Shown: positions 8,058 through 14,158, counted from the first letter of the stretch. The stretch: 35,713 bases of DNA from SRR31156797_3020; one strand, 5' to 3'. The notes: generated from the letters alone by a model not told the origin. Numbers and translations: made by a program.

Positions 8058-9370
8058 AAATAAATAAAAAACTACTGTTTTTCCCGGCGCTTGCCATAGG
8101 GGTAATCACGTTAGTCGTTGCCATAAAACTTAAGCCTGATTTACCCGTTAAGCCTGCCGGCGACCGCGCTCGTTTGGTCGAAACTGTCCCGCTGCTACGC
8201 CAAGCTATCGCACCACAAGCAATTGGCTACGGCAAAATTGCGCCCAAGGTTGAATGGAAAGCCATCGCGGAAGTGACGGGCAAAATCGTGTACCGCCACC
8301 CTAAATTAGAAAAAGGTCAAATCCTTGAGGCCGGAACAGAAATACTGCGTATTGATCCGCTCGACTACGAACTTAAGCTGGTACAGGCACAGGCGGATCT
8401 TAGCTCTGCACAAACTTCTCTGGCTAAGCTAAATCAAGAACAGCGAAACCTAGAGCAAACCCTTGAAATTGAGCGCAACCGCTTAGTGATCGCCAATAAA
8501 GAGCTGGAACGTAAACAAAATTTACGTGCTAAAGGGCTCAATTCACAATCAGATGTTGACCAGCAAGAGCAAAGCGCGCTATCACAACGCAAGTTAGTGC
8601 TCGATATTGAAAATCAAATCGGTTTAATGCCTGACGAAAAACGGGTTGCCCAAGCTTTGGTCAAAGTGAATATGTCTAAAGTGGAAGAAGCGCAGCGTGC
8701 ACTGGAAAAAACCATCATCACTTTGCCTAGCGACCTACGTATTGCACAAGTTGATATCGAACAATATCAGGTTGTTAACCAGCAGCAAACCATGGTCACT
8801 GCACACGGTATGGATGTCATGGAAGTTGAGGCTCAGCTCTCTATCCATGATATGCGCACGCTTGCTTCGAGTCTTGGTAAAGTGAATCGCAACACATCAG
8901 GCATCCCCCAACCAGATATGACCTTTATTGACGCGAGTATTGAGTTCAGCAGTGGCAATATGAAGGCGAGTTGGCCTGCGAAAGTGAGTCGAATTAGTGA
9001 AACTGTAGACCCAGATCAGGCCACTGTCGGTGTGATTTTGGAGATTCGACAAGATTACCGTGAAATAAATCCAAGCTCACAACCACCACTGGTCAACGGC
9101 ATGTTCGTCAGGGCGTTTATCGAAGGTAAGCCGAATCCAAGTTGGGTGATTCCTGAACGATCACTGCATGGCGATAAAATTTATTTGATGGGCGATAATA
9201 ATAAGCTGGTGATTCAATCCGTCTCGGTTCTCTACCGACGTGATAACCAAGTCGTGGTAGAAGGGGATTTAGAGCAAGGTCAAAAGTTGATTCTCAATGA
9301 TCTGTTACCCGCGATTAACGGCATGTTGCTTAAAGAGGCTGACACTAGCCACGAGGAGTCTGAGTTATGA
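8054..9370 (+). CDS. RND efflux periplasmic adaptor (membrane fusion protein)
   Basis: N-terminal TM anchor, AEVTGKIV lipoyl half, long coiled coil, LVNGMFV motif. Confidence 0.92.
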   Translation: MKINKKLLFFPALAIGVITLVVAIKLKPDLPVKPAGDRARLVETVPLLRQAIAPQAIGYGKIAPKVEWKAIAEVTGKIVYRHPKLEKGQILEAGTEILRIDPLDYELKLVQAQADLSSAQTSLAKLNQEQRNLEQTLEIERNRLVIANKELERKQNLRAKGLNSQSDVDQQEQSALSQRKLVLDIENQIGLMPDEKRVAQALVKVNMSKVEEAQRALEKTIITLPSDLRIAQVDIEQYQVVNQQQTMVTAHGMDVMEVEAQLSIHDMRTLASSLGKVNRNTSGIPQPDMTFIDASIEFSSGNMKASWPAKVSRISETVDPDQATVGVILEIRQDYREINPSSQPPLVNGMFVRAFIEGKPNPSWVIPERSLHGDKIYLMGDNNKLVIQSVSVLYRRDNQVVVEGDLEQGQKLILNDLLPAINGMLLKEADTSHEESEL

Positions 9371-12300
9371 TCCGATTCTTCGCCAAACATCCAACCGCAG
9401 CCAACTTGCTGATGTTGTGTTTGCTGGTGCTGGGGGTGACCTCATTAACCACGATTAAGCGCGAAACTTTCCCAGCCTTCGATCCTGCTTACATCATGGC
9501 AGGCGTGGTCTATCCGGGTGCGTCTCCAAAAGAAGTAGAAGAAAGCATCTGTGTTCGAATGGAAGATGCGGTTGATGGTCTTGCAAATATCGAAGAGACT
9601 CAGTGTGAAGCGGTAGAGGGATCGGCAAGGCTGATATTAAAGCTTAACGATAAAGCTGACATCGGAAGAATGTTGGTCGATGTGCAAACCCAGATCAACT
9701 CGATCAATGACTTTCCAAATGAAATTGAGTCTCCTGTGGTACAGGAACTGGATTGGAATGAACCGGTTGTCGATGTGGCTATCACGGCAGATACCACGTG
9801 GCCAGAACTGAAAGCTTACGCAGAGCAGCTTAAACGAACGTTAAAGCTTGATTATGATGTTTCTCTGGTCACTATCGCAGGGTTTTCTGACCATCAGTAT
9901 CTTGTCGAGCTGGACTCGCAAGCCATACGCCAACTTGGCTTAAGTGTCGGCGACATTGCCACTCAAATTGGCCGCCAGAATATTAAATTACCGAGTGGTA
10001 ATATTGAAACGCCAGACAAGAACTTTCTAATCCGTTTTGATGAAAGGCGTATAACACCGGAGCAACTTGAATTGATCGTTGTGGGTTCGGGCGCAAATGG
10101 CTCACAGGTTCGACTTAAAGACATCGCTACCATTACTGACCGCTTTGAATTAGATGAGCAGAAAGTGCTTTTCGACGGTCACCCTTCAGCCTTGCTTAAA
10201 ATCAGTAAGAATAAAGAAGATGATGCGCTTAGAATTAAAGAGCGTGTTGCTCAGTTTGTTGAGCAGCAACAAGCCATCGCCCCTGATGGTGTCAAACTAG
10301 AACTCACTAATGATATCTCGTCTGTACTGTGGGACCGCCTAAGCATGATGTTCAACAATGGTTGGCAAGGTATCATACTGGTGTTCGCAACCATGTGGCT
10401 GTTCTTTAGTTTTCGTTATTCTTTCTGGGTTGCCGCTGGCTTACCGGTTGCTTTCCTTGGTGGCTTATTCCTGATGGCACAGCTCGGGCTGTCAATTAAC
10501 ATCATGTCTTTGGTAGGACTGTTGATGGCGATCGGTATTATGATGGACGATGCGATTGTTATTGCGGAATCCATCGCTTCTCATTTAGACAGAGGGGAAG
10601 ATGTCGACAATGCGGTCATCAAAGGCGTGAAAAAAGTCCTTCCAGGGGTTGTTTCTTCTTTCCTTACCACTGTGTGTATCTTCGGTAGCTTGTTGTTTTT
10701 GCAAGGCGAAATGGGTGCTGTGCTCAAAGCCGTTCCACAAGTGCTGATTCTGGTTCTGATGCTGAGTTTAGTAGAAGCGTTTCTTATTCTTCCTAATCAC
10801 TTATCGCATTCATTGCATAAAGCGAAGAATGAAAAACCACCTGTGAAATTTAAAAAGACACTGCTTGATGGTTTTGATAACTTTCGTAATACAACCCTAG
10901 TCAACGCAGTGGAAAAAGTGGTTGAGTTTCGCTACGCCTTTATCGGTGGGGTTATTACATTACTTTTGATTTCCATTGCTACTTTAGCTGGTGGTTTACT
11001 CAAGTTTCAGCCTTTCCCAGAGTTAGACGGTGATATCGCCGAAGCACGGATCATTCTTCCCCCGGGGTCATCACTTTCTCAAACCGAGGCCGTGGTTGAT
11101 AAGCTGGTTACGTCTGCTCAGAAGCTCGACAAAGAATGGACGCGAGATGTTGAAAATGGTGTCCCACTGATTGAGCATATTACCAGCCAGTTTAATACCA
11201 ATGCTGACGCCAACGAGTCGGGACCCCATATCGCCACCGTTCGACTGGATCTGCTCGGCGCTGAAAGTCGCAATACCGTGATTGATGAGTTCATTGACGC
11301 TTGGCGTCAAGATATTGGTGAGATGGCCGACCCTATTTCACTGGTCTTCAAACAGCCAACCATGGGGCCGGGTGGACGTGCGATTGAAATCCGCGCTAAA
11401 CACGATGATCTCGAGGAACTTAAAGCAGCTTCAATCGATATCCAGCAGTATCTTAACGAGTTTGACGGTGTGCATGGCGTGCTGGACGATATGCGAATGG
11501 GTAAAGAAGAGGTACTGGTCAAACTTCGCCCTGGCGCAGAAACTTACGGTATCAACGGCCAGTTGGTGGCTAACCAGCTACGTGCTGCTTTTTTTGGTCA
11601 GACCGCCGATGAAATTCAGGTTGGCGTTGAAAATATTTCAATTGAAGTGCGTCTCGCCAAAGTTCAAGCGGGCGATCTACAGCAACTGGCAAATTTTCCA
11701 ATCATCATGTCGGATGGCAGTCAGATACCTCTGGCAACCATTGCAACGTTAGATTTTCAACGTAACTATGTTCGAATTCAGCGTGTTGATGGCCTAAGAA
11801 CCATTAGCGTATTTGGTGATGTGGACAATACCAAAGCGAACTCAACCGCTATCATCGCTCAATTCCAACGTGAAGAAGCGTCTAAATTGATGGCGAAATA
11901 TCCGGGGTTGCGTTTCGATTTTGAAGGTCAAAGCAAGGATACTGCTGAAACGGGCGCATCAATGGGTAAAGGTTTTCTACTTGGCCTGCTCGGCGTATTT
12001 GCAATACTCAGTTATCAGTTCCGCAGCTATCTAGAGCCTGTCGTGGTTATGCTTGCGATTCCATTAGCGTTCATTGGCGTGGTTTGGGGACACATATTGC
12101 TCGGCCACTCTTTGAGTATGCCGAGTTTGTTGGGCTTTGTGTCGTTAGCTGGCATCGTGGTCAACGATTCGATCCTGCTCGTGCAGTATATTCGCCATCA
12201 CGTCGATGAAGGCGACAGTGTTCACGACTCGGTGGTGAAAGCGAGTCGTGAACGTTTCCGAGCGGTGTTTTTGACTTCAATGACGACAGCTGCGGGCTTA

Positions 12301-12468
12301 CTGCCTTTACTGACAGAAACCAGTTTGCAAGCTCAGGTCATTCAGCCTCTGGTTATCTCTATTGTGTTCGGTATTTTTGCTTCAACCCTGCTGGTGTTAT
12401 TTATGATCCCAGCGGCTTATTCGGTTCTTGCCGACTTTGGTTTGGTGCATAAACACGAAGAAATATAA
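9367..12468 (+). CDS. RND efflux transporter permease (AcrB/AcrD/AcrF family)
   Basis: 1033 aa; YPGASP.EVE, IGIMMDDAIVIAE proton-relay motif, GIVVNDSI, RFRAVFLTS. Confidence 0.96.
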   Translation: MIRFFAKHPTAANLLMLCLLVLGVTSLTTIKRETFPAFDPAYIMAGVVYPGASPKEVEESICVRMEDAVDGLANIEETQCEAVEGSARLILKLNDKADIGRMLVDVQTQINSINDFPNEIESPVVQELDWNEPVVDVAITADTTWPELKAYAEQLKRTLKLDYDVSLVTIAGFSDHQYLVELDSQAIRQLGLSVGDIATQIGRQNIKLPSGNIETPDKNFLIRFDERRITPEQLELIVVGSGANGSQVRLKDIATITDRFELDEQKVLFDGHPSALLKISKNKEDDALRIKERVAQFVEQQQAIAPDGVKLELTNDISSVLWDRLSMMFNNGWQGIILVFATMWLFFSFRYSFWVAAGLPVAFLGGLFLMAQLGLSINIMSLVGLLMAIGIMMDDAIVIAESIASHLDRGEDVDNAVIKGVKKVLPGVVSSFLTTVCIFGSLLFLQGEMGAVLKAVPQVLILVLMLSLVEAFLILPNHLSHSLHKAKNEKPPVKFKKTLLDGFDNFRNTTLVNAVEKVVEFRYAFIGGVITLLLISIATLAGGLLKFQPFPELDGDIAEARIILPPGSSLSQTEAVVDKLVTSAQKLDKEWTRDVENGVPLIEHITSQFNTNADANESGPHIATVRLDLLGAESRNTVIDEFIDAWRQDIGEMADPISLVFKQPTMGPGGRAIEIRAKHDDLEELKAASIDIQQYLNEFDGVHGVLDDMRMGKEEVLVKLRPGAETYGINGQLVANQLRAAFFGQTADEIQVGVENISIEVRLAKVQAGDLQQLANFPIIMSDGSQIPLATIATLDFQRNYVRIQRVDGLRTISVFGDVDNTKANSTAIIAQFQREEASKLMAKYPGLRFDFEGQSKDTAETGASMGKGFLLGLLGVFAILSYQFRSYLEPVVVMLAIPLAFIGVVWGHILLGHSLSMPSLLGFVSLAGIVVNDSILLVQYIRHHVDEGDSVHDSVVKASRERFRAVFLTSMTTAAGLLPLLTETSLQAQVIQPLVISIVFGIFASTLLVLFMIPAAYSVLADFGLVHKHEEI

Positions 12469-12500
12469 AAACCGTGTTGTTGCGAATTCACTCTCGATAG

Positions 12501-12529
12501 TTGAGTTTCAAAAAGATTGTTGTTAGGTT
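12501..12529 (+). promoter_or_regulatory. Putative sigma70 promoter for the trpS leader (-35 TTGAGT, 17 bp, extended -10 TGtTAGGTT)
   Basis: TTGAGT 12501-12506, TG 12521-12522, TAGGTT 12524-12529. Confidence 0.45.
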
Positions 12530-12535
12530 GTTGGA

Positions 12536-12589
12536 ATGAAATATTTTCCAACGCCTACATCATTCTTTTTCTGGTGGCGCTCTATTTAG
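12536..12589 (+). CDS. Trp leader peptide MKYFPTPTSFFFWWRSI (17 aa), absent from the ORF track
   Basis: Tandem TGG TGG followed by CGC (WWR, as in TrpL peptides), ending 104 bp upstream of a TrpRS gene. Confidence 0.85.
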   Translation: MKYFPTPTSFFFWWRSI

Positions 12590-12690
12590 AGCGGCACGGA
12601 ATTCTTACATTCTTAAGCTGCTGGTAGGTAGCTAAGACTTTAATCTCTTTTTATATCTCCAGTAGCGATCTGTTTTAACTAGGAGATATC
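12569..12690 (+). promoter_or_regulatory. Ribosome-mediated attenuator with alternative hairpins, plus an SD-sequestering stem
   Basis: 1:2 stem 12569-12601; 2:3 pairing AGCGGC(12590-95)/GCTGCT(12617-22); 3:4 stem 12611-12637 followed by a T-rich tract; ATATCTCC(12653-60)/GGAGATAT(12682-89). Confidence 0.75.
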
Positions 12691-12693
12691 CCC

Positions 12694-13716
12694 ATGAACA
12701 CAACCCTCAATGCTGATACGCCAGAAATTATCTTGACTGGTGATAGAGCGACAGGTCCATTGCATCTTGGTCATTATGTCGGTTCTTTAAAGCAGCGCGT
12801 TGCTTTGCAGTCCATTCACGAGCAAACGATCCTTGTTGCTGATATGCAAGGTCTTACTGACAACGCTCACAACCCGAAAAAAGTATCATCCAATATTCTA
12901 AATGTCGTTGCTGACTATCTCGCGGTTGGGATTGATGACTCTAAAACAACGATTTGCCTTCAATCACAACTCCCTGCTCTTGCTGAGTTGACGATGTATT
13001 ACAGTAACCTTGTCACCATCAGTCGGTTAGAGCGAAATCCGACCGTTAAAAGTGAAATCCAAAACAAAGGGTTTGAACGTTCTATCCCAGCAGGTTTTCT
13101 GACTTACCCTATATCTCAAGCGGCTGATATCACGGGGTTTAACGCATCTTTAGTCCCTGTGGGAGATGACCAGTTACCCATGCTTGAACAAACGAATGAG
13201 ATAGTGAGAAAGGTAAATTCGTTAGCGGGGCGTAGGGTTTTAAATGAGTGCAGACCTTTACTAAGTAAGGCATCGCGGCTTCCTAGTACCGATGGAAAAA
13301 ATAAGATGTCTAAGTCGATGGGTAACGCCATTAATCTTGGTGCTACTGAAAAAGAAATCTCTGCAGCGGTAAAATCGATGTATACCGACCCTAACCACTT
13401 AAAAGTTGAAGACCCCGGCAATGTTGAAGGGAATGTCGTGTTTACTTACCTCGATGCTTTTCATCCCGATGAGGGCTATATCAGTCAGCTCAAAGAGCAC
13501 TACCAACGTGGAGGCCTTGGCGATGGTACAACGAAAAAAGTGTTGGAAGAGTGCTTACAAGAAATGCTGCGCCCCATAAGAGAGAGAAGAGCGGAGTTTT
13601 TAAATGATAAGGCTCAGCTGATTGATATCTTAGTTAAAGGGAGCCAAATTTCTCGAGAAAAGACGGACAAAGTCCTTTTTGATGTGAAAGATATCTTTGG
13701 GCTCAACATATTCTGA
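12694..13716 (+). CDS. trpS: Tryptophan--tRNA ligase, auxiliary (TrpS2/TrpRS II-like)
   Basis: ILTGDRATGPLHLGHYVGSL (HIGH-like), YPISQAADI, VPVGDDQLP, KMSKS, SMYTDP motifs. Confidence 0.95.
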   Translation: MNTTLNADTPEIILTGDRATGPLHLGHYVGSLKQRVALQSIHEQTILVADMQGLTDNAHNPKKVSSNILNVVADYLAVGIDDSKTTICLQSQLPALAELTMYYSNLVTISRLERNPTVKSEIQNKGFERSIPAGFLTYPISQAADITGFNASLVPVGDDQLPMLEQTNEIVRKVNSLAGRRVLNECRPLLSKASRLPSTDGKNKMSKSMGNAINLGATEKEISAAVKSMYTDPNHLKVEDPGNVEGNVVFTYLDAFHPDEGYISQLKEHYQRGGLGDGTTKKVLEECLQEMLRPIRERRAEFLNDKAQLIDILVKGSQISREKTDKVLFDVKDIFGLNIF

Positions 13717-13735
13717 ACCGCTTGTTCTCAAACAG

Positions 13736-13768
13736 AAAGAGCCAGCGTAATGTCGCTGGCTCTTTTTT
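13736..13768. terminator. Intrinsic terminator after trpS, possibly bidirectional
   Basis: AAAGAGCCAGCG-TAATGT-CGCTGGCTCTTT followed by TTT. Confidence 0.88.
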
Positions 13769-13819
13769 CCATTTTTTGCTTAAGACACAGTTCGCCGATT
13801 TAAACCTATTGAATAATGG

Positions 13820-14158
13820 TCAGTCCATTCGGGTAATAAAGGTTTGCTCGTCATCCACAAAAGCCACATAGCCGCCGTGGTAGATAAACACCCGACCACG
13901 GCCCTCAACTAAGCAGGCAAGCTGTGGGTTCAAATCTTCTTGGTTATCTTGGCTTTGAAAAGCGCCGGTATCGGTGATTACGCCGTTGAGTGTCGGCAAA
14001 TACCCATAAGTGCGCTTGGCTTGATCAATCAGGCTCAATTCGCTGTCGATAGAGAAGCAAGAGGGTATACTTCCGACATCTTCGATAAACAGTGGTTTTA
14101 GTTCTTCAAAAGCTGTAATAACAAGCCAGTCGATGCCGTTAACTTGATGGATAAACAT
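13820..14158 (-). CDS. Hypothetical cytosolic protein (112 aa)
   Basis: Clean ORF with plausible composition, ending near the trpS terminator; no recognised motif. Confidence 0.7.
   Translation of the reverse strand: MFIHQVNGIDWLVITAFEELKPLFIEDVGSIPSCFSIDSELSLIDQAKRTYGYLPTLNGVITDTGAFQSQDNQEDLNPQLACLVEGRGRVFIYHGGYVAFVDDEQTFITRMD

Follow-up and report, generated by a model that had tools for sequence, protein, structure and literature searches.

How would a bacterium that carries a second gene for tryptophanyl-tRNA synthetase (TrpRS) hold that gene in check, and what would switch it on? The question is raised by SRR31156797_3020, a stretch of 35,713 nt (the window in what follows is this whole stretch, at its full length), in which a gene for a tryptophan–tRNA ligase of the TrpRS-II type (trpS2; 340 amino acids, 12694..13716, + strand) is preceded by a short open reading frame (ORF) with two adjacent Trp codons. 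An earlier note, made from the sequence of the window alone, had read this ORF as the leader peptide of a classical attenuator. The ORF and its helices, their conservation, covariation and folding energies, and the paralogue status of trpS2 in related genomes make it likely, in our view, that the region is a Trp-tRNA-sensing leader switch that would induce trpS2 when charged tRNA-Trp falls.

A conserved Trp-Trp leader ORF upstream of an auxiliary TrpRS gene

A pattern scan of one genome per species recovered 233 stretches encoding relatives of the trpS2 product, and the best 80 of these (72–93% protein identity) were kept, from Vibrio, Photobacterium, Alteromonas, Paraglaciecola, Shewanella, Pseudoalteromonas, Psychromonas and Agarivorans and from a few metagenome-assembled genomes (MAGs). 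All statistics refer to 79 sequences, namely the window and 78 loci, with one locus (L023) left out for want of a leader and another (L070, which does have a leader ORF) left out as its trpS start was not placed. The MAFFT alignment (A1) holds 77 distinct sequences, and the named structures were counted in it cell by cell against 500 shuffles. Locus L023, the only one of the 80 that lacks the leader, is unrelated in sequence upstream of TrpRS residue 8 and lies on a contig that starts 216 nt upstream; a rearrangement or an insertion is possible there.

In the window the leader ORF MKYFPTPTSFFFWWRSI, stop included, occupies 12536..12589 on the + strand, with 17 codons from the ATG at 12536, TGG TGG at 12572-12577 and TAG at 12587-89, just as the earlier note had described it. 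A short upstream ORF with adjacent Trp codons (WW) within 400 nt is present at 79/80 related loci. The WW pair is invariant (79/79 sequences) and is followed by Arg in 66, Cys in 11 and His in 2, and then by Ser in every sequence; the stop lies three codons past WW in 75/79 and is UAG in 77/79. The N-terminal part of the leader varies, and the 79 sequences hold 68 distinct peptides. Phe stands at positions −1, −2 and −3 before WW in 59, 65 and 36 of the 79, respectively, and at none of them in four; the suggested Phe sensitivity of the leader is possible but cannot draw on an invariant residue. Both TTC and TTT are used at these Phe codons (window 12563-12571) across orthologues, so the constraint seems to act on Phe itself or on pyrimidine richness and not on one sequence.

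The controlled gene was identified by its match to TIGR00233 (230.5 bits for the ORF at 12694-13716, against a cut-off of 176.75) and to the Pfam family tRNA-synt_1b. The best solved relatives of its product are chains 1yi8 and 2a4m (E 8e-105, residues 11-332), the latter entered as 'Tryptophanyl-tRNA synthetase II' and both presumably from Deinococcus radiodurans; the Bacillus-type chain 1i6k (7e-31) and other bacterial TrpRS chains (1e-27 to 1e-30) match more weakly. By these comparisons the trpS2 product is closer to D. radiodurans TrpRS II, its closest solved relative, than to the E. coli/Bacillus-type TrpRS. A second TrpRS, 27–32% identical, was found in 5/5 of the relatives' genomes searched and is presumably the housekeeping enzyme; judged in these five genomes, trpS2 is an auxiliary TrpRS paralogue, in agreement with the earlier assignment.

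Competing helices over the leader

For the 181-nt region the folding z is −4.11, a stability reached by 0/200 shuffles. Its first helix, 1:2 (P1; 12574..12597, + strand), pairs GTGGCGCTCT at 12574-83 with AGAGCGGCAC at 12588-97 through nine pairs and one G.G mismatch, inside the span over the Trp codons (12569-12601) that had been predicted for it. The WW codons overlap the 5′ arm of P1, whose loop and 3′ arm contain the stop codon. P1 has an energy of −15.3 kcal/mol in the window (median of the 79 sequences −14.9) and 98.7% of its cells are paired, with C-G replaced by U-A in 11 sequences. Here the Arg codon CGC has become UGC (Cys) together with a compensating G-to-A change in the P1 3′ arm, a coupling that places the constraint on the RNA and not on the peptide.

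The antiterminator helix, 2:3 (12590..12622, + strand), joins AGCGGC at 12590-95 to GCTGCT at 12617-22, exactly the pairing given in the earlier note, and is extended by GGAAT (12598-602) with ATTCT (12609-13). It is worth −10.2 to −11.0 kcal/mol in the window (median of the 79, −11.0), and 97.4% of its cells are paired, one position being G.U in 58 sequences, A-U in 11 and G-C in 8. At least five pairs between segments 2 and 3 can form in 76/79 sequences. By this count helix 2:3 is kept pairable, though covariation does not prove it.

Helix 3:4, the terminator or trap hairpin T (12605..12643, + strand), is built as TCTTA(A)GCTGCT-GGTA-GGTAGCTAAGA, with an inner stem of 11 pairs (12611-15 and 12617-22 with 12627-32 and 12633-37) closed by the tetraloop GGTA and an outer stem (12605-09 with 12639-43) that carries one mismatch in the window. 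Its predicted span of 12611-12637 proved exact, but the stem had been drawn too short, having 11 pairs and the outer stem besides. RNAfold returned this 11-pair stem in place of a candidate AU-rich form of T with seven pairs (12612-19 with 12630-36). T has an energy of −11.6 kcal/mol in the window, and the median of the T region over the 79 sequences is −16.5. Two-sided changes occur at 7/12 tested pairs; 83.5% of cells are paired, MAFFT aligning T poorly in divergent clades. Single-sequence folds of two Photobacterium clades and of loci L074, L076 and L080 give the same T and 2:3 hairpins made from different letters.

Ribosome footprint sizes are well established and were used to mask parts of the leader before folding. 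With the RNA masked to 12587, to mimic a ribosome that has UGG in its A site, helix 2:3 is the minimum-energy fold from 12622 until 12637 (−10.2 to −11.3 kcal/mol), past which T overtakes it marginally (−11.6 vs −11.3 kcal/mol); with P1 formed, or with 12575-12602 masked to mimic one at the stop, T forms. In these models 2:3 would win kinetically and not thermodynamically, as in textbook attenuators. The TrpL-type logic claimed for this locus is thus supported by the invariant WW (79/79), the stop spacing (75/79), the covariation of 1:2 and 3:4 and the 2:3 fold of the masked RNA. An Rfam cmscan of 12300-12900, with E values up to 10, returned six chance-level hits, RF00513 (Trp_leader) not among them.

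A second layer at the Shine–Dalgarno sequence of trpS2

Beyond these three helices, two further structures reach the Shine–Dalgarno sequence (SD) of trpS2. The long-range helix LR (3:5; 12617..12666, + strand) joins 12617-24 to 12659-66 and 12626-30 to 12654-58 in 13 pairs that cover the anti-SD, with an energy of −20.4 kcal/mol in the window. U-A has changed to C-G in 12 sequences at one pair of LR and in three at another, and all eight pairs are canonical in 71/79. The structure of P1, a small hairpin and LR is 96.9% paired, with 31 two-sided cells vs 5.5 in shuffles (0/500), and RNAalifold, run unguided, returns P1 and LR. In the sequestrator hairpin (12653..12689, + strand), the anti-SD ATATCTCC at 12653-60 pairs instead with the trpS SD GGAGATAT at 12682-89, at −11.0 kcal/mol in the window, with 92.5% of cells paired and three covarying pairs; its outer pair is GU in 15 sequences, GC in 13, UA in 13 and AU in 10. 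Taken together, P1, T and the sequestrator are 90.7% paired, with 70 two-sided cells vs 26.1 in shuffles (0/500). A direct 4:5 pairing of GCUA with UAGC was also considered and rejected by eye as too weak.

The anti-SD can thus pair either with the trpS SD or, within LR, with GG(U/A)AGGUA just past segment 3. To open 7 nt at the SD takes a median of 10.3 kcal/mol with T enforced vs 2.2 with LR enforced; the cost is higher in the T state in 79/79 sequences, by at least 4 kcal/mol in 78. Left unconstrained, most orthologues fold at minimum energy into P1 + T + sequestrator, and the window into P1 + LR, because its outer T stem has a mismatch. In these models the SD of trpS2 lies in a hairpin that competes with LR, and this competition would be linked in function to the leader.

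Predicted termination and transcription start

In the window, the T stem is followed by CTTTAATCTCTTTTTAT, and a U-rich tract, TCTCTTTTTAT, lies past it at 12644..12654 (+ strand). The run that the earlier note saw after 3:4 is present in the window, but a U-tract adjacent to T (at least 5 U of 9 nt) occurs in only 54/79 sequences, the window included. Loci of the splendidus type (L034, L036, L044, L047, L055, L058-L061 and L063) have a 12-nt insertion past T (A1 columns 187-197), which resembles a duplication of the T 3′ arm (AAGAAUGUCAUC / AAGAUUGUCGUC) and shifts the U-tract off the stem.

Upstream of the leader, 76/79 sequences have a TAnnnT box; its distance to the leader ATG is 6 nt in 65 of them, 7 nt in eight and 9 nt in three. 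TG stands at −15/−14 in 65 sequences, a −35 box begins with TTG in all 76 that have TAnnnT, and the spacing between the boxes is 17 nt in 75/76. In the window, these are a predicted −35 box, TTGAGT (12501..12506, + strand), and a predicted extended −10 box, TGtTAGGTT (12521..12529, + strand; hexamer 12524-29). An SD-like motif ahead of the leader ATG was found in only 1/79. Transcription probably starts at or beside A12536 and, with the −10 box 6 nt from the ATG, the leader ORF is predicted to be leaderless. No TrpR-operator palindrome was noticed at the promoter, where no dedicated search was made.

A self-contained and probably mobile unit

The gene is followed by an intrinsic terminator (13734..13777, + strand), a 14-pair stem at 13734-67 and then a T run. 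Likeness to the 80 loci by blastn is confined to the interval between the −35 box and the stop of trpS2, with no alignment starting before 12480 or ending after 13763: the first alignment begins at 12480-12522 in 52/80 loci, at 12535-12572 in 15/80 and inside trpS in the 13 most divergent. The window has a gene for a resistance-nodulation-division (RND) efflux permease at 9367-12468 upstream of the leader region, and a sorbitol phosphotransferase system (PTS) operon with a DeoR regulator downstream of trpS2 on the opposite strand; the neighbouring genes of trpS2 are not common to the window and the related loci. Since Vibrionaceae and Alteromonadales versions of trpS2 share 85–93% protein identity across orders, and likeness is bounded at 12480 and 13763, horizontal spread is suggested, and leader and trpS2 are probably a self-contained, mobile cassette from promoter to terminator.

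Two Vibrio genomes carry two copies of the cassette, Vibrio sp. MA40-2 on chromosomes 1 and 2 (L012 and L028) and Vibrio sp. HN007 on chromosome 2 (L027 and L049), each copy with its own WW leader; the genome that bears L012 has three TrpRS matches. Locus L074 lies on a contig titled as a Desulfobacterium MAG (deltaproteobacterial) and bears an otherwise gammaproteobacterial cassette with a leader of 19-23 codons ending in CWWHSLL; mis-binning or transfer is possible. An ORF of 112 amino acids at 13820-14158 (− strand) has no NCBIfam or Pfam match, and a relative of it (82% identity) was found at 1/80 loci (L029), there upstream of trpS2.

Proposed mechanism and alternative explanations

We propose the following sequence of events, in which it is a prediction where transcription starts, what the ribosome covers, that RNA polymerase terminates at T, in which order the helices fold and in which direction the response runs. 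Transcription would start at or beside the A of the leader ATG, from the extended −10 promoter, and the leader would be translated as a leaderless message. With Trp-tRNA plentiful, the ribosome would reach the UAG three codons past WW, where it would mask segment 2, or P1 would re-form after its release; T would then form and, with the U-tract, would terminate transcription in the window and in most copies of the Vibrio and Alteromonas type. Any read-through RNA would keep T, leaving the anti-SD free to pair with the trpS SD, and translation would be shut too. When Trp-tRNA is scarce, through starvation or through inhibition of the housekeeping TrpRS, the ribosome would stall on UGG UGG and cover the P1 5′ arm; segment 2 would pair with segment 3, T would be blocked and RNA polymerase would read on. 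GG(A/U)AGGUA, left single-stranded in the 2:3 state, could then catch the emerging anti-SD and nucleate the 13-pair LR, opening the SD, after which LR may displace segment 2. In the T state this toehold would be locked in the tetraloop and stem, and the anti-SD would take the SD. That one switch gates both termination and translation initiation is a part of this proposal that we find plausible but stop short of calling probable.

Several results weigh against this mechanism, or against single elements of it. Alignment of the orthologous upstream regions, the check proposed in the earlier note, returned a conserved WW and covarying 1:2 and 3:4, but helix 2:3 had no two-sided change, and 139/500 shuffles reach its score. 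The shuffle controls in turn overstate significance, the cassette seeming recently spread and the sequences being kin, and the helices having first been read from the same sequences. At equilibrium the antiterminator alone does not open the SD, which is more than 50% unpaired in 0/79 sequences with 2:3 forced, and the minimum-energy fold is more stable than the LR state by a median of 3.9 kcal/mol (range 0-11.2); since equilibrium folding leaves the SD shut, the ON state would need kinetic control. In the window, T departs from a canonical terminator by its bulge, an outer mismatch and only 5/9 U after the inner stem, and a simple consensus scan did not flag it as terminator-like, probably because of the bulge. 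The tract past T is poor in U (at most 3 U of 9) in 19/79 sequences, including both Photobacterium clades, L074 and L080, and most splendidus-type copies with the 12-nt insertion. The same scan found no promoter within 12300-12800, which speaks against the predicted one; the miss is explained by the −10 box TAGGTT, which agrees with TATAAT at 3/6 positions only. Of 11 sequencing runs considered, seven are on record as RNA, all with small shares of the stretch and in the form of contigs. The four of these that were aligned to the window gave contigs of relatives (85–99% likeness), one with 136 nt upstream of 12536 that could stem from DNA carry-over or read-through, and yielded no usable transcript ends.

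These same features define the two alternatives nearest to our proposal, each of which keeps one half of it. In the first, regulation acts through termination at T alone, and LR and the anti-SD:SD pairing are mere structure in the read-through mRNA that bears on its stability or its basal translation and is not switched by the leader. The geometry of 1:2, 2:3 and 3:4 is indeed complete without them, a U-tract follows T in 54/79 sequences and the SD remains paired in the predicted folds with 2:3 forced; however, LR and the sequestrator covary, they overlap segment 3 and each other and so are not independent of T and 2:3, the 19/79 copies without an adjacent U-tract keep every helix, and the cost of opening the SD tracks the T or LR state in 79/79. 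We regard a pure transcription attenuator as unlikely. Those U-poor copies with all helices conserved, the SD-opening costs of 10.3 vs 2.2 kcal/mol and the failure of a simple scan to call T a terminator would instead suit an attenuator of the ermC kind that acts on translation only, in which T is a trap hairpin that terminates nothing and the stall is relayed through 2:3 and LR to the SD. Against it stand the U-rich run directly past the full T stem in the window (TCTCTTTTTAT) and in 54/79 sequences, and a stem of 11-20 pairs with a tetraloop, which looks terminator-like; we think it quite improbable.

A different sensor altogether is conceivable, with the nascent peptide arresting at the stop in response to free Trp, as in TnaC, or the leader peptide acting in trans, as has been reported for a Trp leader peptide in Sinorhizobium. 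The strongly conserved C-terminal ..FFWWRS., with synonymous TTC/TTT at its Phe codons, would fit such a sensor. Yet Arg gives way to Cys or His at +1 in 13/79 sequences, the 11 Cys cases with a compensating RNA change, and the 79 sequences hold 68 distinct peptides; no Asp or Pro of the kind found in the TnaC motif is conserved near the stop, and it is hard to see why excess Trp should induce a TrpRS. Arrest residues conserved independently of RNA pairing, as in TnaC-type sensors, are not what the Arg-to-Cys change with its RNA compensation presents, and we hold this explanation to be highly improbable. A chance ORF among chance intergenic hairpins has nothing in its favour except the small size of the ORF; the leaders at 79/80 loci, the z of −4.11 and the covariation reduce its probability to next to nothing, conservation and covariation having already refuted it.

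The Trp-tRNA-sensing switch that we favour can be taken one step further, to a reading that we put forward as speculative and consider doubtful. In it, the six-segment RNA would turn a transient stall into a lasting, translationally ON conformer, the antiterminator freeing the toehold GGAAGGUA and so allowing the 13-pair LR to capture the anti-SD, inside a mobile 'sense-and-resist' cassette of ~1.3 kb that comprises the promoter, the leaderless WW leader, the six-segment RNA, the TrpRS-II gene and the terminator; leaked transcripts would be locked OFF, and in nature the switch would be induced by TrpRS inhibitors from neighbouring organisms in the sea. Pseudoalteromonas is reported to include producers of indolmycin whose biosynthetic cluster itself contains a TrpRS gene (PMC5069768).

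Comparison with known leader switches

The mutually exclusive geometry of the E. coli trpL attenuator of the trp operon and its kinetically favoured antiterminator are established textbook knowledge. Each system has two adjacent Trp codons in a short ORF, and helices 1:2, 2:3 and 3:4 that exclude one another; in each, the position of the stop lets a ribosome that terminates there mask segment 2, and the antiterminator wins kinetically, here on the folding models. Unlike trpL, the leader described here controls a synthetase gene and not biosynthesis, and gives no RF00513 match; two further covarying helices reach the SD, the terminator stem is weaker and interrupted, and the predicted promoter lies 6 nt before the ATG, with no leader SD.

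Judged by arrangement, the closest biological parallel is the attenuator of Streptomyces trpS/trpRS1. This attenuator is reported to have been tested by Vecchione and Sello in 2010 (J Bacteriol 192:3565). As in our loci, a leader/attenuator with Trp codons stands before one of two TrpRS genes, and the expected inducer is shared, namely a fall in charged tRNA-Trp, including one caused by a TrpRS inhibitor such as indolmycin. Unlike our loci, Streptomyces belongs to a different phylum, and the likeness is one of arrangement; antibiotic resistance of the enzyme has been shown for Streptomyces and is hypothetical for trpS2. The Streptomyces attenuator was predicted by Seliverstov et al. 2005 (PMC1262725), and the same paper cites the pheST (pheM) leader attenuator of E. 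coli, a precedent in the Gammaproteobacteria. Like the trpS2 locus, pheST is a gammaproteobacterial synthetase operon under a leader peptide rich in cognate codons; unlike it, pheST uses Phe, and the enzyme under its control is the housekeeping one instead of a spare paralogue.

In ermC, a ribosome stalled in the leader ORF re-pairs RNA segments and so frees a sequestered SD. Its counterparts here would be the anti-SD:SD hairpin and its competitor LR, although ermC responds to the stall of a drug-bound ribosome with four segments, whereas the trpS2 leader would respond to a stall at hungry codons with six, one of them terminator-like. A leader ORF at the very 5′ end has a precedent in the trpL attenuator RNA (rnTrpL) of Sinorhizobium meliloti, which is leaderless at its native locus according to PMC6614838; that system is alphaproteobacterial and controls trpE(G), unlike ours, and the leaderless start at trpS2 is a prediction only. 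Our literature search found no description of such a leader in Vibrio or other Gammaproteobacteria, and older comparative-genomics papers may hold a prediction of it.

Conclusion

The class of mechanism proposed here is a textbook one, and its conserved version in marine bacteria appears to be undescribed. The trpS2 leader goes further than known members of that class in its six-segment wiring, which includes the covarying LR and anti-SD:SD helices, in its probable leaderless start and in its cassette-like spread. No known principle is overturned and a specialist in attenuation would not be surprised; the value of the trpS2 leader is that of a testable member of its class with unusual wiring. 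It would add a well-defined and widespread regulatory RNA to Vibrio, Alteromonas, Shewanella and Photobacterium and would account for their 'extra' trpS. A single leader-peptide switch that apparently drives both termination and SD sequestration would also offer a compact model of co-transcriptional folding and of the coupling between transcription and translation. Should the trpS2 enzyme prove resistant to TrpRS inhibitors, marine bacteria would have in this cassette a resistance module that is inducible and spreads horizontally; and if the 'sense-and-resist' reading is true, the leader would serve an inducible antibiotic-resistance module and not a starvation response.

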